The position numbers and the translations under genes are program-made. Positions 4,024-58,722 of a stretch of 64,000 bases of DNA are shown piece after piece (position 1 is the stretch's first letter; each line of letters starts with the position of its first letter). The stretch spans positions 20,710,001 through 20,774,000 of the forward strand of contig NC_087250.1 in NCBI RefSeq assembly GCF_037042905.1, written 5' to 3'. Under the pieces are notes generated by a model, which had not been told where the DNA came from, did no database searches, and saw nothing but the letters and a program-made list of their open reading frames with translations. This DNA comes from Lytechinus pictus. Taxonomy: Eukaryota.

Positions 4024-6152
4024 TTAAAGGTGCAATGAGTTATTAGCGATTTTAAACAACCTGGGGCTTTTATATTAATCATTTTGAATACTAATAAACT
4101 AGTTAATATTAGTCTTTGTTCAACGGGTTTTAGGGATTGTAAGAAGTGTACACTGTGGTGTAATCTTTATTCAAAGAGGGTGGATAGTTTTGGAGATTCT
4201 CAAAAATGCGTTTGTCATCATTTCACTTCATTTATGCATTATATGATTGCATATCACTTTTTTGTAGATTGGATATAAAATATAGGTTTGTTTTTTAACA
4301 GTTTCCCCATGTAGTGCAACAATAATTGACGTTCCGATAATAAACTATTTTGGTTAAAATACGAATACAATAAGCCTGTTCACGGTTGTAAACTGCGCAC
4401 GTGCAGAAAAAGGTAATCGGAGACAACCATGACGGTGGCTTTCAAATTCACTGACATAGGCATTTGTGATTTGATGATTATTCATGTATTCCTTTCAAAA
4501 TATTTATCACGTCCAAGCTGAAGAGTAATAAATAGAGCCTTCATAATCACTGGTATTTGACAGTAGCCTAAACAATAGTCAAATGTGCCAAAGGCAGACA
4601 ATAAAACAGATTTCCAAACTTTATCCCTGATGTACTATTCTAGTCACCTGGTCTATACAATGCCTTTTGTTCTTAGAATTTGAATACTCTACCGGTAAAG
4701 CTTACGCAACATCTACATTTGAAAATTATAGTGCTTATCCTAATGAAAAATCACAAAGGTCATTGGAGAAAAGTTGATCATGAGCTAACCGTGAACTGGC
4801 TTATTGTTTGTGTACTGCTTTCTCAAGGATTTTTGACACAGAGGGCAGTACTGAAAAAGTGCCACCCTTGTGAATTGACGTGATTTAGGGGACCTTGAAA
4901 TCAGATGTAATTTGTGAAGTTTTCAATGACAAGTTAAACAATTTAGCGAGTGGTTCCACAATGATATCCGCAGGTAATTTAAGGCCGTGTTTATGCTTCC
5001 ACTTTTCAGGCCAGAATCAGCGTTTCCATACGTGATTAGTCCAAAACACGGTTGCGTCCATGCTTAGTTTCATTTAAACGACGTTTCAAAATGCCAATCG
5101 TAAACTCACAAAAAGGTGCGTTTGTAAACGTCGTTTGACCAGAATCAGGCTTTCTGGGGAAGTATAAACAGAACCACGATCGTAAACGTGTTTAAATGAC
5201 GTCACTTAATACATGCTTCCAGTGAGATGAAAGTCCGCGGGCAAATACAGTTGCATTGCTCCATGGTCGCATGGTACCTTCACGGAATTACCTCTCATCT
5301 CCCTTGTTACATTTACATGTGTGATAATTGATTTAAGTACTATCACTAGTAATACTCTTCCAATTTGTCATCACGATGAATGTTGAGGGATTTACAAAAA
5401 AAACTGGAACATGAGTTATAATGAGGAGACATCACCAGATGCCCCAGTAGCATAAACAAATATATGTTTTATTATTTCATTATGTATACTTTAATATTCT
5501 TTATTTTTTCTCACTATTATCCTCACCATGGTGGAAATTATATGGCTATGTCAAGTAGCTCCATGCAATGACTAATTTTATCGGAAATTGTTTGATGTTT
5601 AAATTACAGTCGACGTACCTTCCCCATAACAACACTCGGAAAAAAAACTTTCGAAAAAGGGCGCGCCCAATTTGACCTCGCTTTCCTGCTCAACGAAAAT
5701 TACGATGCTAAAGCCCCTTTCACAATTGTTGCCAAACAGACTACAACGGCTTGCGACTCGAAAATTTTCCCGTTGTACGACTCGTTGTAGCCGTTGTACC
5801 ACTTATTGTACGATCCAGATGCGACAAAATGGTCGCATCTCGGTCGGGAAAAAAAACCGTGCTGCTCCGATATTTTGAGCGACTGACGCGATGAAAAATA
5901 ATTGCACGACAGGCAGTACGAGTGTTGTGCGACTTTGCACGCACTCGTAAGACCCCGAACGAGTGTTGCACGAGTATTTTCATGTCGTACGATGATGCAT
6001 CCTGTCGTACGAGTCCGTTGTACCACCCTAAGACTATTGGAAGACCTGTCTTGCCCCCTTTGCAACGTTGTACGATTTTTTTTCACCCCCAATATAAGAT
6101 CGAGAACTCCTGAGCTTTCATCCCAAATGTCTGGACCATCCATACTGTAAAC

Positions 6153-7454
6153 ATGGCTGCTGCTCGACCAATAGCTCCTGGGAGGCTCTTGCATTTGCTA
6201 AGTCTGAGAAGGCAAATCCAAAACGTTCAAGACAGACATGTCATATTGATGGCCTTACTCATCCGTAGACGTCAAAGACATGCAAGGCAAAGAAGAAGGT
6301 GGTGGGTCAAACCCTGGCTTGAGAGACGTGTGCTGTTTGGACAGTATGATAATCTGATGACGGAGTTGCAGAGAGAATGTCAGGGTGACTTCCTGAACTA
6401 CATGAGGATGCCACCAGAAACGTTCCTTGAACTGTTGCAGCGCATCACTCCGAGGATAGAGAAGTCCTATCGCTACCGGTAGCCACTGGATCCTGGGCTC
6501 AAACTGGCCATCACCTTGAGATATCTTGCGACCGGCAACAGCTACAAAACCCTGCAGTATGCCTTCCGTGTTGCCCATAATACCATCTCTCTGTTTATAC
6601 CAGAGGTGTGCCAGGCCATCATCAGTGAATACCAAGATGAAGTATTTTCCTGTCCAACTACTCCAGATGAATGGAGAGAAGTGGCACGGACTTACGCTGA
6701 CAGATGGAACTTTCATCATGTCTGCGGAGCCTTGGACGGAAAACACGTGGCCATCAGAAATCCACCAGGCTCTGGTACGATCTACTACAACTACAAGGGT
6801 TTCTACAGCCTCATCCTCTTGGCCCTAGTTGATGGCAATTACAAGTTCCTCTGGGCTGACGTTGGTAATCCCGGTTCTTCATCGGATGCCCAGGTCTTCA
6901 ACCACAGCCCGCTGAGACGTGGACTGGATAATGGTACTCTTGGCCTGCCAGATCCAGAGCCCCTGCCAGATGATGACCGAGACACCCCTTACTTCTTAAT
7001 TGGGGACGACGCCTACCCTCTCAAGACATTGATGCAAAAGCCGTACTCCAACCGTGAGCAGACCGACGAGGAGAGAATCTTCAACTACCGTCTCTCGAGG
7101 GCTCGCCGTGTGGTGGAGAACAGCTTTGGCATCCTTGCCCATCGCTGGAGATGCTTGTTGAGTACCCTACAGCTTGATCCAGAAAAAGCCAGGACAGTCA
7201 TTATGGCCTGCATGTGCCTCCACAACCTAATGAGAGATCGTTTTCCTGGGCTTCAGAACATTGACGTTGACCATGAAGATGAGTTGGGCAACCACATCCC
7301 TGGGGCATGGAGAAACGCAGCAGTTCTGCAGGATGTTGAACGAGTTGGCGGAGGCTACCAGGCAAACAAAGAGGGCAAGAAGCTGAGAACTTACCTGAAG
7401 CACTACTACAACAGTCCAGTTGGAAGCCTGCCCTGGCAACAACACATGATATAG
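6153..7454 (+). pseudogene. Harbinger DDE transposase (HARBI1-like, 433 codons) with one in-frame TAG at 6480-6482
   Basis: ORFs 6153-6482 and 6516-7454 share a frame, and the join reads YR*PLDPGLKLAITLRYLATG. Motifs RRWWVKPW, FLNYMRMPPETF, GALDGKH, IGDDAYP and RRVVENSFG supply the D-D-E triad. Confidence 0.92.
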
Positions 7455-10374: not shown

Positions 10375-12763
10375 GGTCTAATATCACTTGGTCTAATCAT
10401 CAGATGGGCTAACAACATTCGGGCTAAACCCACTTAGTCCAATTCTCTTTTGGTCTAATGACCACTTGGTCTAATAGCCAATTAGTCTAATGACCACTTG
10501 GTCTAATAGCCAATTGGTCTAATGACCACTTGGTCTAATAGCCAATTAGTCTAATGACCACTTGGTCTAATAGCCAATTGGTCTAATGACCACTTGGTCT
10601 AATAGCCAATTGGTCTAATGACCACTTGGTCTAATAGCCACCTGGTCTAATGCCCGGTTGGGCTAATCGTCACTTGGTCTAATTTCCATTTGGTCTAATT
10701 GCCATTTCGTCTAATGTATTTTATTGTTACTTGGTCTAATTGCATTTGGTCTAATACCAGTTCGTCTAATAGTCGGTTGGTCTAATACTAGTCGGTCTTA
10801 TACCAGTTGGTCTAATCCTCACTTGGTCCATTATTTAGTTGGTCTAATGTGCAGTTGGTCTGATTTCCATTTCGGCTAATTTTATTAGGTCTAATTTCCA
10901 CTTCGTCTAATTTCCAGATAGTCTAACATTCATTTCGTCTACATGACACTTGGTCTAATTTGTAAAGTTTGCATGGTGACTTGTTTTCAATTTTCTGGTG
11001 AAATTTTTAAAGTAACTTTCCGCGCGCCGGCTTCGAATCTTCACACGCCGCCCCTCGATTTTGGAGTACAGTTAAAGTGACTAAATTTCCATTCCCAAAT
11101 TTGGAAAAATATGGAAATTTTCAAAGCCTGTGGAGATGAAAAAAAAACGTTTGGAGATTAAACAAACTTTGGGATTTTTGAAGGTTAAGATTTGGGGAAA
11201 AACAATAGATTTTGCTAGAATAACGCTGTTATACAATCATTGAGGTGAAAAAATATGATGTTTATTTATCCACCTCTATGTATATATGATCTACTGTAGA
11301 TAGTTAACGGCTGGCTTAACCCAATCAGGGTTCCCAGCTTTTCAAGAAAAACAAAAATCCCTGATTTTTGTCTGAAGAAGTTTAAAAATTCCATGACAAT
11401 TATTTAAACCCATTCCCAGTTTCTCATGCCTCTAAATTGTTGCAGTGAATTACATGTATTATTATTTTTTCTAATTTTACGTGTAGGCCTATTATTGTTT
11501 TTAATTGTATATACCAGTAGGCCTACTTGTACGGTAGTAAAAGAGGCTGCACTAAAAAAACAACATAACATGTCTTTCAATGAATGTTGTTTTCATATAC
11601 AACAAAATATAACAGAGTCTGACTGACTATCGTGCATTCGACTTTTGGGCATATCAAAATTCCCTGATTTTACCCTGACTGGAAAAACGTAAAAAATCCC
11701 AGATTTCCTTGATGGGCTGGGAACCATGCCAATCCATTTTAAGGAGGAGGCGAAGATGTAGATAAAAAAACAGAATGAGGAGATGTATACGATGAATGAC
11801 TACCGTGGTTATAACTGATAAAGGTCCGCAAACGTAGACTATACTATGTTATTAAAAAGTCAATATCGCTGCTATACCAATATGGTCGCCGTGATGTTGT
11901 CGCAGCTAACCCGATAAACCTGTATAGTGTCATCAAACTATAGACAGGTGGTCTGTTATTTGCCTCCAAACTAACTATTGGAATAACTTAACAAAATATT
12001 CATAACAAAATTACATGATCTAATGGCTTTGTAACTTTTGGAATCCCCCAAACTGCATAACTATCGCTTATTTTCCATCAAGTTCAAGTATCGTCCGTGC
12101 ATGCGGTGATGTAATGATTATGAATATGATATAATTTTCATCATCATCTATATCGATATGTAGGCTATAAGAATTATATTTGATTAGAATAATTCACTTG
12201 ATGATCTACTATCTCGTCATCGATAGTCTTTCATGGTGCAGGTTTTGCGCCCACCAGCCCTACCCCGGCTCTACCCTTCCGGATCCTGGCGACATGTATT
12301 AACTGATGCATGGTATTTTTCCACTACGTACCATATTTTTTAATTCTAGATCAAATGCATAATAATGAATGATGTTATGTTCGAATTAATGGACATTAGC
12401 CCAACTGTGTATTAGACCAAGTGGCGATTAGACCAAGTGGTCATTAGACCAATTGGATATTAGACCAAGTGGAAATGAGACCAAACGGTCATTAGACCAT
12501 GTGACATTTAGACGAAATGAATATTAGACCAAGTGGAAATTAGCCAAATTAGAAATCAGACCAAGTGGTGTTAGACCAACTGTAAATTAGATTAAATGGT
12601 TTTAGCCCAACTGCTCATTAGACGAATTGGATATTAGACCAAGTGGGAATTAGACGAATTGGATATTAGACGAACTGGTTGTAGACGAAATGAGTTTAGA
12701 CTATGTGAAGTTGGACGAACTGATAAGTAGACCAAGTGGTATAAGACCATCCGGTAATTCACC
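10375..12763. mobile_element. Non-autonomous DNA transposon with inverted arrays of ~16-bp GGTCTAAT repeats
   Basis: GGTCTAAT array at ~10375-10960 and inverted ATTAGACC array at ~12395-12750. 8-bp direct repeat AATCGGAT at 10367-10374 and 12764-12771. A second, partial copy is at 38713-39530. Confidence 0.8.
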
Positions 12764-16233: not shown

Positions 16234-19200
16234 CTATGGAAAAAAAAAAACATAATAACGGAATAGATTTTTAATGGATTTCATATATTCGAAACGAAAA
16301 GGTTGTCAAGCTTTCAAATAGCGCTCTGGGAAAATAACTATTGGTGTCATAAACAAGACAAAAATCAAAAGAAAAGAAAAGTAAAATAGGTGAAACATTG
16401 CGTAAGCGGTATAGTTTAAAAAAGGTCGCGAACGAAGAAATCGAGTGAGTGAAATTTCACGGCAGAGACAATTTTTTCGGCATCACCAATTTTTCCAAAG
16501 GGTAGATAGCTCTGGGGAACCTTGATTTAAGATACGCCTACCATTGTTCTCTTCATTCATTTCTTTACAATATTTAAAATAAAAAGAGTTACCAAAGCTG
16601 TTGTACATGTATAACTTCACACATTTGTATACTTTCTCCCATACGTGTACTGTATCAAAGCAATAGCTTTGATCCAGCTGAGGCATGGCGGCTTGTCATT
16701 GTTCAAAACCCACCTTCACCCGACAAAGGAAATTATAATTGGTATAGTGTCGAAAATCTGTCTATCTGACGGTCAATCGAATCGGGGTCGCCCTAGCCAC
16801 TAACCCGTCTCTGTGGTCTAGTGGTTAAGGCACCGGCGTTCAAAGCTGGGGGCCCGGGTTCGATTCCCGGCAGAGACATTTTTTCGGCATCACCAATTTT
16901 TCCAATGGGTAGATAGCTCTGGGGAACCTTGATTTAAGCTACGTCTACCATTGTTCTCTTCATCCATTTCTTTACAATATATATATATATATATTTCTCT
17001 TCATTTCTTTCACAACATATTTAACCCTTTGCGTGCGACGGGCTTCCACAGAAGCCCAGTGAGTCGTTCACTTAGCTACGACGGGCTTCTACAGAAGCCG
17101 AGATTTGTTTGGTTTAATTCGATGAAGTTTTTCAGCTTTTTCGTAATTGTTATGTACTAAAACCTTTCCCACTATTTCCTTTATAAACCTATTTCGACAA
17201 TCAAATGAAAAAAATACACAGCTACGTGGAGAAAAATCCCTAAAATAGGAAATCATTTCAACTTTACCCGAATTTTTCGTTGGAGTCAGACGGGGAGGAT
17301 AAATTTTGTGACGTGCACGTACGCGCGCGCACACTAGGCCTGATCACGTGATTTGATCCATATCGTTGTTTTGAAAGATAAGCTAAAATCATTTCTGGAA
17401 GATCGTCAGGTAATAACCTACGCGTTTATTCACGATTTTCGTCTTATTTGTTTCATCAAGACGATATCACTCTAGATAGAATGATATCTCCTTGGTTTCA
17501 TCGATCGATTGTATTTTCAGAAAAACAAAAAGCTTGTAATGTCTTTTTAGTACTTTGAGCTGATCGCGGTGCACTTTTGAACTTTTTCCCTCCCCATCAT
17601 CCCTCATTTATTTTTTTCTAAAAAAAGAAGAGAAAAGAAAGCAGTTTAGCACACCATTTATCTTATGCTCTTTTCAAAAGGGAAACGTCCATGTAGTTCA
17701 TGATATCGGCACTACCGAAACAAAAGAATGTCTGGGCGGCAACTCAAACAAATTCCTTCCGAAAAGAGCAGGATACAGATGGTCAACGCCCCGAACAAAA
17801 GGAAGATTAGCGTTTATCGGCAAGATTACCTATTGAATGCCCTTCGTACTTAGCAATACAACAAGTTTTTATGAATACTTTTCCGACCAACATACTTTAT
17901 CTAAAAAAAAGAAAACAAAGTTGTCTCAATTACCAACAAAACAGGTGCTTATGACATCGGTCAGTGATCCATTTTGCATAAAAGCGCTTCCCCTGGGTTA
18001 TGATGCATATGAGGATGAAAGAAGAATCATTTAGGGAAATTATAGAAAAAAAAATGTTTATATGTCACGGTGAACGAGAGAGAATGAGAGACAGAGACGG
18101 CTAATAAAAATATATTATTTAATTCATGTCAATATACAGAATGAATTTATAATAGGTTAGGTTCTAAAAGCTCTTTATCTTATTCTCCTTTTTTCTCCCA
18201 GATGATTTTTTTTGCATTGAAAAGTTGACGGAAACATTATCACTTCAAATTATAAAACCAACAATGAACTAAGTTTCCTCGCCTGAAATGGAGGAGATAG
18301 AATGATATATGATGAGAAATTACGTTAAGGCACCCACTATAAAGAAAACGCGTTTGTCTGGCGTGTCACCAGACAGAACCCGCTCAATCCTACAAACTTT
18401 TATTCATGTGTGACCTACACCCCCCCCCCCCAAAAAAAAAGGTTGATACCGACCCAAATTTTATTGATTTTCCTACTTTTTCGCGAATTTCTTTTTTTTA
18501 CCGGCGAATTGCGTGGTAGAAAAGATTTCATATAGAAAAAAATTGTTTCCTTTACTGCAAACATTTGGGGCGCTTACCCTGGTTAGCATATAAACCAAAA
18601 TATCTGATTTTTAAAATAAAAAACAGGGGCCGCTGAGCGCTTTGATAATGGAGGGGTTGAGCTGAATGTGGGAGGGAGTGGACTTGCCAAAAAATCACAA
18701 ATTTATATAGACTTCGGATTTTTTTGTACATGTTTGCTGAAAGGGGTGAGGACTGAAACTTCCTACCAACTCCGCAGCCTCTGTACTATTAGATAGAGAC
18801 AAAAATGAATTCTAACTATTAGGAATGTTTTTTTTATTTATTACTTTGTTTTCGGTTGTGAAACCAATGAGACAAATTGAAAATAGAACAAAACGAAAGA
18901 ACAAATAAAAAAAACCTTTTATTGCGTAGGCTATAATTTATTCAAGAAAAAAATACTTTCTCTTAATTTCAGTAATTGCTAGCATGGCTCTTTTTGAGGG
19001 AATAGTAAGATAAAGAAAGAAACGTAGAAAGTGACAAGAAGAGAGTTGGGAGGTATGATTTTTTACTCATAATTTTAGTCACTTTTATTCGATTTAACTC
19101 TTTGAAATAATTTCAGGATATTACAAATCGAATACCGGTGCGCAAAGCTCAGGAACAAAATTATTTTATTATTATAATAGCTGCGTGGAAAATCGAATTA

Positions 19201-38712: not shown

Positions 38713-39530
38713 GGGGAATTATCGGATGGTCTAATACCACTTAGTCTACTTATCAGTTCGTCCAACTTCACATAGTCCAAACTCATTTCGCCTACAACCA
38801 GTTCGTCTAATATCCAATTCGTCTAATCCCAACTTGGTCTAATATCCAATTCGTCTAATTTTCATTTAGGCTAATAACCAGTTGGGCTAATTTTTACATG
38901 GTCTAATATCCAATTCGTCTAATTTCCACTTGGTCTAATATCCAATTCGTCTAATGAGCAGTTGGGCTAGAACTATTTAGTCTAATTTCCAGTTGGTCTA
39001 ACACCACTTGGTCTAATTTCGACTTCGGCTAATTTCCACTTGGTCTAATTTTCATTCCGTCTAATTGTCACATGGTCTAATAGCCAAATGGTCTAATGAC
39101 CACTTGGTCTAATAGCCAAATCGTCAAATGACCACTTGGTCTAATCGCCAATTGGTATAATACCCAGTTGGGCTAATCGTCACTTGGTCTAATTTTCATT
39201 TGGTCTAATTCACACTTGGTCTAATTAGTGTCCATTTATTCTAACATAACATCATTCATTATTATTTATTTTATCCAGAATTAACAAATATGGTACGTAG
39301 TAGATAATTACCATGCATACATGTCGCCAGGATCCGGAGGGGTAGAGCTGGGGTAGGGCTGGTGGGCGCAAAACCTCACCGTGAAGGACTATCGATGGCT
39401 ATCGATGACGCGCTCATCAAATGAATTATTCAAATCAAAAATAATTATTATATTTAGGCCTATATATCGATTATATAGATGATGATGAAAATTACATCAT
39501 TTATTCATAATCATTGTAGCTCATAATGGT
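38713..39530. mobile_element. Partial inverted copy of the 10375-12763 element
   Basis: Reverse complement of ~12090-12763, including the GGTCTAAT array and CCAGGATCCGGA(A/G)GGGTAGAGC. Confidence 0.8.
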
Positions 39531-48452: not shown

Positions 48453-49200
48453 ACTGGTCAAAGCGGAAATAAATTTACCGGATTGTGACCACTGGTCAAA
48501 GCGGAAAGAAATTTACCGGATTTTTTAAATCACTGCTTGAAGCGGAAAAAAATTTACCGGATTTTTTAAATCACTGCTTGAAGCGGAAAAAAAATTACCG
48601 GTTTGTGATCACTGGTCAACGCGGAAAGATATTTACCCGATTGTGACCACTGGTCAAAGCGGAAAGAAATTTACCGGATTTTGACCACTGGTCACTAAAG
48701 CGGAAAGAAATTTACCGGATTGTGACCACTGGTCAAAGTGGAAAGAAATTTACCGGTTTTGGATCACTGGTCAAAGCGGAAAGAAATTTACCGGATTTTG
48801 ATCACTGGTCAAAGCGGAAAGAAATTTACCGGATTGTGACCACTGTTCAACGCGGAAAGAAATTTACCGGATTTTGATCACTGGTCAAAGCGGAAAGAAA
48901 TTTACCGGTTTGTGATCACTGTTCAACGCGGAAAGAAATTTACCGGATTTTGACCACTGGTCAAAGCGGAAAGAAATTTACCGGATTTTGATCACTGGTC
49001 AAAGCGGAAAGAAATTTACCGGATTGTGACCACTGTTCAACGCGGAAAGAAATTTACCGGATTTTGATCACTGGTCAAAGCGGAAAGAAATTTACCGGAT
49101 TTTGATCACTGGTCAAAGCGGAAATAAATTTACCGGATTTTGATCACTGGTCAAAGCGGAAAGAAATTTACCGGATTTTGATCACTGGTCAAAGCGAAAA
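48453..49200. repeat. 38-bp minisatellite, ~19-20 units
   Basis: Unit ACTGGTCAAAGCGGAAAGAAATTTACCGGATTTTGATC, head to tail with no spacers. Confidence 0.95.
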
Positions 49201-49232
49201 GTAATTCATCTTCGTTGTAGTAATTCTTTACA

Positions 49233-54599: not shown

Positions 54600-57500
54600 T
54601 CAATGAGAAACATAATCATATGTCCAGACTGGTACTTTTTTGTCACGTTTAGGTCTTTCATTATGACTTCCAGTCTGTTCACTAGCTGTGTTTGATTTTC
54701 TCTGATCAACATGACCACTATCCCTGAACAATGTCAGTTTTGAGGCATTCCAAATACGTCCGTCTTCCAAGACAAATGTGTACAAACCCTTTTTGGCTAC
54801 AATTTTCTGTGGTGCCTTAAACCATGAATTGTTCTTTTTCTTGACTCTTTTCACTCTAACCTTATCACCAATGCTAAACTTTGGAATGGAAGCACCCCTA
54901 GTTTTGTCAGCGTACTCGCGTGCTTTCTTTTGCTTTGCACCAACACGCCTTCGCATTTCAGTATCCTCCCCGGCACGCCTATTGCCATCATTAGCATCAT
55001 GAATATGTAATGGCGTGACCATGGGTCGACCATGTAACAACTCTGCTGGAGTTGTACCAGTGGTCTGATGAGGGGTAGCGCGGTATGCCATAAGCAATTC
55101 AAGGACTGCTTCCTTCCATGGTTTACCTTGCATTGTTGCAATTTGAAGCGTTTGCTTCAACACCCTATTCCAACGTTCAACCTCACCATTTGAACGCGGG
55201 TAGTACAGTGATGCTTTGGAATGTGAAATACCTAGCTTCTTTAGGAAATCTTCAAATTCACTAGATACAAATTGAACACCATTGTCAGTAACAACTTCAG
55301 AAGGAATACCTTCCCTAGCGAACACTTGTGTAAGAAATGTAATGACTGAATGTGTAGTCACTTCAGAAACAAAAGCAACCTCTGGCCATTTGGAGTAATA
55401 ATCTATGGCTACAATGGCATATTTGTATGAAGGTTGTGTAGTATTGAATGGACCTGTTATGTCAATACCTATTTTCTTCCAAGGTCCATCAGGAAGAGGA
55501 ACACTCTGTAAGGGAGTATTACGAGTATTTGAAACCTTATCACTTGATTGACACAAACTACAATTATGAATAGCATCCTCTACCATCCTATCCATACATG
55601 ACCACCAATAAATATCACGTAAGCGTTGCTTGGTACGCACTATTCCTTGGTGTGCGGAGTGCGCATTTGTAATCAAGATTGCTTGAAGTGATTTGGGAAT
55701 GACAACTCTATTACCACGAAACACGCAATCATCAATGATTGTAAGCTCATCGCGAATCATGTAATATGCTTTCAGTGAACTATCTTTGCTCGATTCTTTT
55801 GACCAACCATGTAATATCTTCTCAATCACACGTTGTAGAATTGAATCAGAAGCCGTTGCACGTTGTAACTCGGCTTTTGATATTGTAACTTCCGCGAATA
55901 TGCTCTGGATCACAACTTCATGATCATCATCTTCAAAGACTGAAGGCGTTGGTTGTGGTAATCGCGATAATGCATCAGCAGCATGATTCTGTAGACCTGG
56001 AATGTACTCGACGGTGTAGTTGAATCGTAGCAAACGCGTAGCCCATCGAGCGATCCTCATAGACTGACGTCCTGTCCCCTTCGTTGACAACAATGTAGTA
56101 AGAGATTGATGATCTGTGCGGAGAACAAAATGGCGGCCCCACACGTACTGGAACCACTTTTCACAAGCCCATACACATGCGAGAGCTTCTTTCTCGCCCA
56201 CCGAATAGTTTTTCTCAGCTTTAGTGAGCGTACGGGAAGCGTAAGAGATAGGAACCTCCTTTCCATCCTTCATCTGCATAAGGACAGCTCCTAACCCGTA
56301 TTCTGATGCGTCAGTTGAAATAACTACTGGTAGATCTGGATCGAAAAGATGCAACGTCGAACAATGTAGGATCTGATCTTTGACTGTAGCAAATGATTCG
56401 GCAGCAGCAGTAGACCACACGAACGAAACGTCCTTCTTGGTCAACTCTCGTAGTGGTGCAGTTACGCTGGAGAAATTCGGAATGAACTTTGCGTAATACG
56501 AAGCCAGTCCCAAGAATGATCGGAATGTTGCAGCATCCTCAGGAACCGGAGCATCTCGTATTGCAGCAACGTTATCTTCATTAGGTTGAACGCCTTTGGC
56601 AGAGATAACATGCCCTAGATAACTGATCTCCTTCAGGTTGAACTGGCACTTCTGTAAGTTCAGTGTAAGTCCTACACTCTGTAGCCGTTGTAGAACTGCC
56701 CGAAGATTTGTGTCATGGGTTGATAGAGTATCACCGTAGATGATGATGTCGTCAAGGTAGCACTGGACACCAGAAAGTCCAGCTAGAATAGACGACATAA
56801 GCTTCTGGAATGCTGAAGGAGCCGAAGAAAGTCCAAAGCAGACACGCTTGAACTGAAAGAGTCCTTCATGCGTAATGAAAGTTGTGAGATGACGCGAATC
56901 CTCATGAAGAAGAAGCTGATGGTATGCACTTTTGAGATCTAAAGTGCTGAATACAGTTGCTCCTCGCATCTCACTCAACAGTTCTTCTATGTGAGGCAGT
57001 GGATATTTATCCTCAACTATCGCTCTGTTCACATCTCGCAAATCGACACACAGGCGGATGTCCCCATTCTTCTTATTCACGACGACTAATGAGGAAATCC
57101 ATTCACTTGATTCTACTGGTTCAATGATATCAGCTTTAACCAAACGCTGTAACTCTGTCGACACTTTGTCTCTAACTGCAAAAGGTAGGCGTCGCAGCTT
57201 GTGTTGTACTGGCGGCACGTCCTGTTTCGTCTTCACACGATGCACGTAACCCTTCGCAAGTCCAACATGGTCACTGAAGAGCTCGTTGAATTCACCACAA
57301 ATCTCTGAGTTCACTGCATTAACCTCGTCTGGCATCTGTGGTAGCACATGTAACAACTTCATGAGATCACGTCCCATGAGACAGCTTCCTTTTGTAGCAA
57401 TGAAGAATTCGCACATGACTGTAAGGTCACCATGAGAAATATTGGCCTTGAACATCCCAACCACTGGAATTTGTTCATCTGTGAGGTAAGTAGTGAGAAT

Positions 57501-58538
57501 ACAATTAGCTCGTGGTGGCAGAAGAGCTTTCCGAGTAAAATGTTTGTAAAAAATGTCAAGAGGAATGGTTGACACGCGAGACCCTGTATCAAATAACAAG
57601 TCAAGCTTCACTGATCCGTTCACCGTAACTGGAAACAAGATTGCATCCTTGGATGGGTGAATAGTCAAAACCTCAACGTTATGTAGTTGAGACTGTTCTG
57701 AAGAAATTTGATGAACAGCTTGCTGTCGGGACCTACACACTTTAGCAAAATGTCCCTTTTTCCCACATGAATTGCAAGTTGCTTCTCTAGCTTTACAAGA
57801 GACATCATTAGCTTTGTGCCTCTTATCACCGCAACGATAACAAGTTACAGTTTTCTGTTCAGGTGGACTGGCAGTTGACTGTTTCCACGCACCAGGCTGT
57901 TTCTGTCTACGCTTTGGCTTAAACTTCACTGCGTTCACACTATCTGCAGGTGTATTCAGTGCTCGAGTCTCTCGTGACGCAGATTCCATCTGACGTGCAA
58001 TTGTCATAGCAGACTGAAGAGTAAGATACGGCTCGATCAGAAGCCTTTCCCGAATTCGCTCTGAGTTGGTCTTCTCCACCAGTTGATCCCGAATGAACTC
58101 ATCTCGAAGATCACCAAACGCACAGGTAAGTGACAGAGACCGGAGTGCACAAACATATGTTTCCACAGGCTCGTCTGGCATCTGGCCTCTCTGTCGGAAA
58201 CGGTAACGTTCAGCAACAACATTAACCGTTGGTAGAAAATGATTATCTAGTCTGTCTATGGCTTCTGCATATGAACAAGACTCACCAGCACCGGTTTCTG
58301 TAGATGACCCAGCAATAGCAGCAGAGGTCCCCGATGAGGTAGATGGTAATGTATGAAACACCCGCTGGCCCTCCGCTCCGAGACAGTGGAGTAGCAAGGC
58401 ACGGCGACGGTCCTCGTTAAATTTGTTGGCAGCCGATGCAACGAGATACACGTCAAAGAGTCCTTTCCATTGTTTCCATGGCATAGCAGGAGTGCCTGGA
58501 GTAGGTAAAAAGTATGGCGGGGGTTGCAAATTCGCCAT
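54600..58538 (-). CDS. Gag-Pol polyprotein, 1312 aa from the ATG at 58538
   Basis: Two CCHC knuckles (CYRCGDKRH...C and CNSCGKKGHFAKVC), protease LFDTGS, RT YLDD, RNase H TDAS, and integrase HHCC plus D,D(35)E, in Gypsy order. Confidence 0.96.
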   Translation of the reverse strand: MANLQPPPYFLPTPGTPAMPWKQWKGLFDVYLVASAANKFNEDRRRALLLHCLGAEGQRVFHTLPSTSSGTSAAIAGSSTETGAGESCSYAEAIDRLDNHFLPTVNVVAERYRFRQRGQMPDEPVETYVCALRSLSLTCAFGDLRDEFIRDQLVEKTNSERIRERLLIEPYLTLQSAMTIARQMESASRETRALNTPADSVNAVKFKPKRRQKQPGAWKQSTASPPEQKTVTCYRCGDKRHKANDVSCKAREATCNSCGKKGHFAKVCRSRQQAVHQISSEQSQLHNVEVLTIHPSKDAILFPVTVNGSVKLDLLFDTGSRVSTIPLDIFYKHFTRKALLPPRANCILTTYLTDEQIPVVGMFKANISHGDLTVMCEFFIATKGSCLMGRDLMKLLHVLPQMPDEVNAVNSEICGEFNELFSDHVGLAKGYVHRVKTKQDVPPVQHKLRRLPFAVRDKVSTELQRLVKADIIEPVESSEWISSLVVVNKKNGDIRLCVDLRDVNRAIVEDKYPLPHIEELLSEMRGATVFSTLDLKSAYHQLLLHEDSRHLTTFITHEGLFQFKRVCFGLSSAPSAFQKLMSSILAGLSGVQCYLDDIIIYGDTLSTHDTNLRAVLQRLQSVGLTLNLQKCQFNLKEISYLGHVISAKGVQPNEDNVAAIRDAPVPEDAATFRSFLGLASYYAKFIPNFSSVTAPLRELTKKDVSFVWSTAAAESFATVKDQILHCSTLHLFDPDLPVVISTDASEYGLGAVLMQMKDGKEVPISYASRTLTKAEKNYSVGEKEALACVWACEKWFQYVWGRHFVLRTDHQSLTTLLSTKGTGRQSMRIARWATRLLRFNYTVEYIPGLQNHAADALSRLPQPTPSVFEDDDHEVVIQSIFAEVTISKAELQRATASDSILQRVIEKILHGWSKESSKDSSLKAYYMIRDELTIIDDCVFRGNRVVIPKSLQAILITNAHSAHQGIVRTKQRLRDIYWWSCMDRMVEDAIHNCSLCQSSDKVSNTRNTPLQSVPLPDGPWKKIGIDITGPFNTTQPSYKYAIVAIDYYSKWPEVAFVSEVTTHSVITFLTQVFAREGIPSEVVTDNGVQFVSSEFEDFLKKLGISHSKASLYYPRSNGEVERWNRVLKQTLQIATMQGKPWKEAVLELLMAYRATPHQTTGTTPAELLHGRPMVTPLHIHDANDGNRRAGEDTEMRRRVGAKQKKAREYADKTRGASIPKFSIGDKVRVKRVKKKNNSWFKAPQKIVAKKGLYTFVLEDGRIWNASKLTLFRDSGHVDQRKSNTASEQTGSHNERPKRDKKVPVWTYDYVSH

Positions 58539-58550
58539 CCTCGTCGCCAA

Positions 58551-58722
58551 TGTTCAATACCAGTCCATAACTACAGTAGAGGTCTAAATAAGACAAGAAT
58601 TCACTCTGCAAATTCCAACACAAACGTTACTTTAATCGGCATCCATTTTACTACACGATTTTCTTGTGCACCCTATTTCGGGTCTCCTCGCACTAGTCTT
58701 CATTCAGACTGTATACACAACA
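58551..58722 (-). repeat. 5' LTR
   Basis: Followed on the minus strand by the PBS (58549-58535). Confidence 0.97.

Follow-up and report, generated by a model that had tools for sequence, protein, structure and literature searches.

The tRNA-like gene found in the window, the 64,000-nt stretch of Lytechinus pictus DNA that was analyzed as a whole, is a module of a 405-nt tandem repeat with thousands of genomic copies. A sequence-only reading of this DNA had called the gene repeat-borne but had not placed it within a repeat unit. We put the probability at about 0.5 that, within this non-coding repeat, the tRNA fold serves as a processing signal for the repeat's RNA and not as a decoder.

A complete cloverleaf with a UCA anticodon

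The 72-nt cloverleaf of the 7/4/5/5 type with a full acceptor stem, described in the sequence-only reading, was borne out in the sequence at 16807..16878 (+), where it is identical to the consensus of the young family (A) of the repeat. The A box (16814-16824), the B box (16857-16867), the G at position 32 (16838), the UCA anticodon (TCA, 16840-16842), and a run of six T (T6, 16879..16884, +) are all present; the T run resembles a Pol III terminator and also pairs with an A run in the predicted rod described below. The cloverleaf scored 60.9 bits against Rfam RF00005 (gathering score, 29; E 1e-10), which was the only gathering-level Rfam match in the window, and ARAGORN reported the anticodon tca with a SeC label given from the anticodon alone. 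tRNA-Sec has a long variable arm and an extended acceptor-T helix. The variable loop of 4 nt and the 7/5 fold therefore support the earlier statement that this is not tRNA-Sec. Folded alone, the tRNA-like strand was moderately better than shuffles (z, -2.0), with the D arm unformed in the MFE structure.

A likeness of the D and T arms to tRNA-Glu, also claimed from the sequence, was not confirmed. A search with a T-arm pattern brought up genes for host tRNA-Gly, and none for Glu was present in the loci examined (30 of 63 matches plus four regions). Among the three host isotypes compared, which did not include Glu, Trp, or Arg, Gly-TCC was the closest, matching 49/72 positions of family A and 53/72 of family B. 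A bacterial sigma-70 and terminator scan of the DNA stayed at chance level and is irrelevant for a eukaryote.

The 405-nt repeat and its copies

The 106 nt 3' of the tRNA-like gene recur 407 nt upstream. The window holds one insertion of the repeat at 16456..16979 (+), consisting of about 1.3 head-to-tail units and 97.6% identical to the family consensus. At its 5' end the insertion is truncated at unit position 58, which lies in the T arm of the tRNA of the upstream unit, and it opens with the 3' stump of that tRNA and its T run (16456..16477, +). The far end of the predicted rod, with two loops at unit positions of about 171 and 222, lies at 16565..16631 (+). An antisense segment at 16737..16805 (+) forms an imperfect complement of tRNA bases 9-25 and 44-72, the T run, and the trailer, and has no complement of the anticodon arm; this predicted pairing is kept in subfamily B. 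Within the tRNA-like gene, loop 32-38 (16838..16844, +) is a candidate bulge-helix-bulge-like splice site if two units pair. The second unit's body runs to the main fixed 3' end (16885..16979, +), where a (TA)n target microsatellite spans 16978..16994 (no strand assigned). Just past it, at 16995-17023, a short extra remnant resembles the 3' end of the repeat.

Genomic copies were counted by pattern searches of the 812-Mb genome, which gave at least 1,881 perfect matches to the 27 nt that open the tRNA-like gene and at least 3,168 matches, with up to 3 mismatches, to a body motif. The unit is 405 to 412 nt long, non-coding, and without an ORF. Divergence of the young family A from its consensus was 1.5% (40 of 43 copies scored). 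The roughly two thousand "SeC/suppressor" calls that a tRNA finder makes in this genome are modules of the repeat, and such calls should be treated with caution.

Long satellite-like arrays of the unit were observed on contig 28, on contig 21, which shows a two-unit higher-order pattern, and on contig 2 near 8.87 Mb. The contig 2 array is the largest, with 44 near-identical units and 43 identical tRNA-plus-T6 sequences, and it ends at the main site in (TA)n. At several independent loci, the anticodon arm is interrupted at the same base (unit position 32) by another mobile element with the same end sequence.

When relatives were sought outside this genome, viral contigs gave no match. In metagenomes, three matches on two contigs were considered as relatives and rejected, being tRNA-like repeats with other loops and unrelated flanks. 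Unrelated metagenome contigs carry tRNA-like repeats with the same D-arm motif; in one of them the acceptor stem is paired, and a decayed second copy lies 290 nt upstream.

The window contains other elements. A DDE transposase frame at 6114-7454 (+), split over adjacent frames (Pfam DDE_Tnp_4, E 6e-31), is one that we take to be Harbinger/PIF-like. An uninterrupted frame of 1,317 aa at 54600-58553 (-), with a zinc knuckle, protease, RT, RNase H, and integrase, is apparently an intact LTR retrotransposon. The stretches 10450-12671, 38798-39225, and 48453-49206 hold minisatellites of 16/32 nt in both orientations and a 38-nt array of about 20 copies.

Insertion anatomy and Penelope-like elements

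The anatomy of the insertions was investigated in 126 segments from 78 loci, a sample biased by the picking of loci by pattern. The 3' ends fell mainly at two sites about 50 nt apart, with 49 of 125 at unit position ~171 and 44 of 125 at ~222, so that most copies (93/125) end in the rod-end interval corresponding to 16565..16631. TA or CA repeats adjoin 79 of these 93 fixed ends. The two sites are located in loops of the predicted rod, at its far end, and these loops are likely start sites of reverse transcription. The 5' ends, by comparison, were ragged: only 4 of 126 lay within 5 nt of the tRNA start, where about 3 were expected, and 9 of 126 lay near the tRNA 3' end, where short truncations are common anyway. 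Since the 5' ends do not cluster at the tRNA start, the template is continuous across the unit junction. Forty head-to-head inverted pairs were found among the 126 segments, 24 of which use one 3' site each, and 21 segments were longer than one unit. The gene had also been set apart from ordinary SINE heads, and the scarcity of 5' ends near the tRNA start and about 230 nt of conserved upstream sequence agree with this; the repeat is not a plain SINE because its template runs through the tRNA's 5' end.

Insertions of Penelope-like elements (PLEs) are described, in the available text of PMC8557442, with 5' truncation, partial tandems, inverted copies, two 3' ends, and (TA)n targeting. In addition, a PLE RT starts at two internal sites in an AC-rich stem-loop, making a "tail" (PMC11167929). 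One microsatellite that holds copies of the repeat also contains a PLE fragment, and a search with this fragment gave 151 matches. Among them is an open frame of 736 aa that has motifs of an RT and an endonuclease; a hammerhead core follows it, and it shows the same two-end pattern. The atlas look-alikes of this protein were RVT_1/GIY-YIG (0.96-0.99), and Pfam and PDB gave no useful match to it. The RT and endonuclease motifs of this frame are named partly after PMC8557442. Two hammerhead-bearing PLE families with open RT-endonuclease frames were observed in this genome; they insert in (TA)n, form inverted pairs, and have two 3' ends, and they sometimes share one microsatellite with the 405-nt repeat.

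No 3' sequence shared with an autonomous element was present among the matches listed at 12 PLE loci, a set without Naiad-type families. Eighteen tRNA-less 3' ends were considered as traces of such an element and were rejected as simple truncations or inversions. Because no autonomous partner with the same 3' end was found, we infer PLE mobilization from the anatomy, which makes it highly probable that the 405-nt repeat is a PLE-mobilized passenger.

Two predicted folds kept between two subfamilies

An older subfamily, B, surfaced in the search for host tRNAs. It is also 405 nt long and has an internal divergence of 7.4% (30 of 32 copies scored, with 7 A-type rows of 39 left out). Subfamilies A and B differ at 10 of the 72 tRNA bases, and their flanks differ by 20 to 33% substitutions. 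Three of the tRNA pairs have changed in a compensatory way, two further changes are wobble-keeping, and the others affect base 37 and one base of the variable loop; no pair is broken. When changes were placed at random in simulations, such a pattern arose in at most 1 of 1,000 trials (P <= 0.001), and the absence of broken pairs taken alone had a P of 0.002 to 0.07. Cloverleaf pairing held in 93% of cells across 22 distinct copies, a control that is inflated by relatedness. The covariation check thus found compensatory changes between A and B, and the earlier suggestion that the structure is maintained is upheld at the level of the two subfamilies.

The whole unit is also predicted to fold as a long rod, in which the 70 nt before the tRNA act as its imperfect antisense copy without the anticodon arm. 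The z score of the rod on the tRNA strand was -6.4 for A and -3.5 for B, compared with -4.4 and -1.7 on the antisense strand (25 shuffles each). Of A's 88 aligned long-range rod pairs, 28 are altered in B; 12 are broken, compared with 25 +/- 3.4 expected (P ~1e-4). Five double changes in the rod alone were not significant (P 0.08). Base 70 of the tRNA changes jointly with its cloverleaf partner and its rod partner. The predicted rod masks the tRNA except for its anticodon arm and sets the ends of the unit side by side. Both predicted folds are kept on the master lineage, and single copies decay freely.

This decay is what one would expect if the tRNA were a passive relic that was acquired once, through an inverted PLE-type insertion, and copied from a long Pol II read-through template, with both folds functionless: of 55 private stem changes, 38 disrupt cloverleaf pairing, as in random decay. 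However, three compensatory and no broken pairs (P <= 0.001) are hard to obtain without RNA-level selection on the master lineage, and the wobble-preserving rod changes, with their deficit of broken pairs (P ~1e-4), are likewise hard to obtain without selection. We therefore regard the passive relic as unlikely.

The A box and the B box are identical in A and B, and compensatory changes have preserved the acceptor stem. Both would also follow if, in a PLE-mobilized repeat, the tRNA were a Pol III promoter and/or a signal for RNase P and RNase Z, with G32 and UCA as neutral relics. Cutting at the tRNA ends, or read-through, would then yield unit-length or multimeric RNA, and the rod would juxtapose the ends for ligation or for template jumping by the RT. 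The predicted rod does bring the ends of the unit together, and in family A a structure combining the rod with a second, free cloverleaf is only 4 kcal/mol less stable than the MFE. Moreover, tRNA-derived promoters are known inside non-SINE retroelements (Helenus, in the available text of PMC10886601). Against this, T6 would halt Pol III before the body, and the insertions show no pile-up of 5' ends at the tRNA start (4/126), with 9/126 near the tRNA 3' end. The promoter or end-cutting account also leaves the conserved G32 at a CpG site and the antisense gap at the anticodon arm unexplained, and we consider it possible but rather doubtful.

Anticodon variation and the suppressor question

The sequence-only reading had raised an opal-suppressor-like role for the gene. 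TCA is present in 1,875 of 1,919 copies with intact flanks, which reflects the youth of the family (1.5% divergence), and in 19 of 22 B-pattern matches, one of which is A-type. The chance that three anticodon bases survive the A/B split is 0.34 to 0.5, so no selection on the anticodon was detected across it. TCC accounts for 13 of 24 non-TCA matches, in older copies that are 3.5 to 8.5% diverged and carry linked changes. It is common to both units in three insertions, and TCT is common to both parts of one inverted B insertion; gene conversion could also yield such sharing within an insertion. Only two anticodon-arm variants, A36C (3 insertions) and U33A, are shared across one insertion, and no significant difference emerged between shared and private variants (Fisher p 0.25 and 0.11).

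In loop 32-38, G32-U33-U34-C35 is kept in all detected branches, and 36 and 37 are variable. No dispersed branch without C35 (20 matches) or without G32 (39 matches, mostly the CpG change) was found. The exception is the contig 21 array, with A32 in 5 of the 6 units shown; its units alternate, which suggests DNA-level expansion. Position 36 is free in older copies (UCC, UCU), and G32-U33-U34-C35 persists.

In a suppressor role, single copies would read UGA on behalf of the host or of a UGA-containing partner, after being transcribed by Pol III to T6, matured, and charged. The intact boxes, terminator, and cloverleaf and the presence of UCA in both main subfamilies agree with this. PLEs with in-frame UGA also exist (Naiads), though these are explained by SECIS in the accessible text of PMC8557442. 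Nevertheless, position 36 varies in older copies, and anticodon retention is within chance. G32 is atypical among decoding tRNAs. Partner-type ORFs are open without an internal TGA (736 aa, in a set that did not include Naiad-type elements), and no CCA-ended reads were seen among the loose ends listed, from a library type unsuited to tRNA. Recovered PLE frames were examined as UGA-containing partners and rejected for their lack of TGA, and a TGA-read-through scan of eight loci gave nothing relevant. A suppressor role is therefore not supported, with older insertions carrying TCC or TCT, and we consider it very improbable.

RNA-seq reads over the repeat

Three raw RNA-seq runs, chosen by species label, were searched over about a quarter of each (12.9 million records). 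The region 16300-17100 received 1,754, 1,162, and 944 reads in the three runs, only 22 to 34 of which were at least 99% alike; most were 90 to 99% alike. Between 33% and 64% of the reads continue into unlike flanks. Both orientations were covered about equally, so the library looks unstranded, and one run was dominated by a single variant. Coverage crosses T6 without a step and shows no defined ends. No CCA end appeared among the loose ends listed, in libraries that cannot show a 75-nt tRNA, and reads over a circle junction are indistinguishable from genomic tandems in cDNA libraries. The signal looks like read-through of old copies and not like an abundant circle, in libraries that may lose circles.

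These reads bear on two points. The sequence-only reading had assigned the gene its own Pol III terminator; the T6 run is indeed conserved, but it pairs in the predicted rod and RNA-seq reads cross it. The resemblance of the RNA-seq to read-through also fits the passive-relic account, as does the finding that RNA left unprocessed is the main PLE substrate in vitro (PMC11167929).

A proposed route through tRNA splicing

We return to the preferred reading, in which the fold is a processing signal. It is somewhat probable that the tRNA fold is needed in cis for RNA processing; a route through TSEN and RtcB specifically is one that we advance tentatively, on the basis of modeled pairing. In RNA that covers two units, the inner tRNA halves would be captured by the antisense segment, and a single tRNA body would arise from the outer halves (5' of one tRNA and 3' of the next). 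The intervening 405 nt, one permuted unit, would resemble an "intron" that follows base 37 and is closed by pairing of G32 with C35', with 3-nt bulges at 36-38 and 6 nt to the exon end. TSEN would cut out one unit, leaving ends that RtcB joins, and RtcB would close it into a unit-length circle. In such a rod-shaped circle the tRNA would be shielded against renewed cutting. One of the two loops would serve a Penelope-like RT as its start site, and the enzyme would copy around the circle into (TA)n. The unusual G32 and the UCA triplet would arise as by-products of the splice site, and a UGA-anticodon tRNA-like RNA would be shed as a spliced by-product.

In metazoan TSEN substrates, what counts for the pair at 32 is how strong it is, not which bases form it; the exon end lies 6 nt away and the bulge is 3 nt, according to the available text of PMC6614914; these regularities also appear in the accessible part of a review (PMC10485636). 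By sequence, both A and B fit this geometry: G32:C35' is a strong pair at 32, the exon end is 6 nt away, and the proximal bulge measures 3 nt. The splice model would explain G32, the free positions 36 and 37, and the omission of the anticodon arm from the antisense segment, as well as one insertion whose units share U33A with a fully pairing four-base helix. Against the splice model, the bulge-helix-bulge conformer lies 7.8 (A) and 11.5 (B) kcal/mol above the MFE, with P 0.02 to 0.04 for the swapped arm and ~0 for the 32:35' pair. Pairing of the outer halves had a P of ~1, but equally so with shuffled spacers (12/12), and it was rejected as evidence of design. The G32-C35 pairing is one of three possible changes, which counts against the splice-site reading.

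T6 also weighs against the splice model: it should stop Pol III before the body, so a multi-unit RNA would need Pol II or read-through; no promoter for such an RNA was identified. A hammerhead core was absent from A and B with a descriptor that did find both PLE hammerheads. Rfam likewise gave no ribozyme in the repeat, but it also missed the PLE hammerheads. One loose descriptor match to a known ribozyme in B was discarded, being absent from A.

Taken as a whole, the picture of a ribozyme-free retrozyme, that is, a selfish 405-nt RNA posing as a tRNA intron whose TSEN/RtcB circle is copied by a Penelope-like RT into TA microsatellites, has in our estimate a clearly less than even chance. If the splicing model is true, a mobile element exploits tRNA splicing for its transposition intermediate, which would be a natural selfish use for the chemistry of tRNA intronic circular RNAs (tricRNAs) and would offer a compact system for testing Penelope-like RTs on circular templates. 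Even without the splicing model, there is PLE-style mobilization of a tRNA-bearing repeat with two conserved, mutually exclusive predicted folds.

Comparison with known systems

Our literature search, which did not extend to Repbase, Dfam, or most subscription journals, gave no published description of such an element, and the available text of PMC13247085 does not mention one. The repeat shares features with four known systems. Like tRNA-derived SINEs and Helenus/TRIMp3, it is a non-autonomous retroelement carrying a tRNA-like sequence with Pol III boxes (Kojima 2024, PMC10886601, available text). In contrast to them, its tRNA is internal to a circularly permuted tandem unit, the full acceptor stem and T6 are kept, insertions do not begin at the tRNA, and no LTR pair was seen.

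The 5' truncation, partial tandems, inverted 5' copies, two 3' ends, and (TA)n targeting are shared with PLEs and their non-autonomous derivatives (Craig et al. 2021, PMC8557442, accessible text; Frangieh et al. 2024, PMC11167929). Unlike PLEs, the repeat has no ORF, its "tail" is about 50 nt instead of 30 to 40, it carries a tRNA module, and no 3' likeness to an autonomous family was found. The predicted splice geometry, and the same enzymes in the proposed model, recall tricRNAs (Schmidt et al. 2019, PMC6614914; PMC10485636; available text of both). Here, however, the "intron" would be a whole permuted repeat unit, by way of the tandem arrangement, the pair would be G:C and not C:G, and the proposed circle would be a transposition template.

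Animal non-LTR retrozymes have units of about 170 to 400 nt, co-occur with PLEs, and are proposed to form RtcB-closed circles that are copied into tandems, as given in the accessible parts of two reports (Cervera and de la Pena 2020, PMC7229834; Li, Clavereau and Pollet, bioRxiv 10.64898/2026.07.22.740005). The 405-nt repeat resembles them in its tandem, non-coding, highly self-paired units. It differs in having a full tRNA cloverleaf and an antisense mask instead of a hammerhead core, and its circle is a proposal. The 405-nt repeat works like a retrozyme but, carrying no ribozyme, is not a member of that class.
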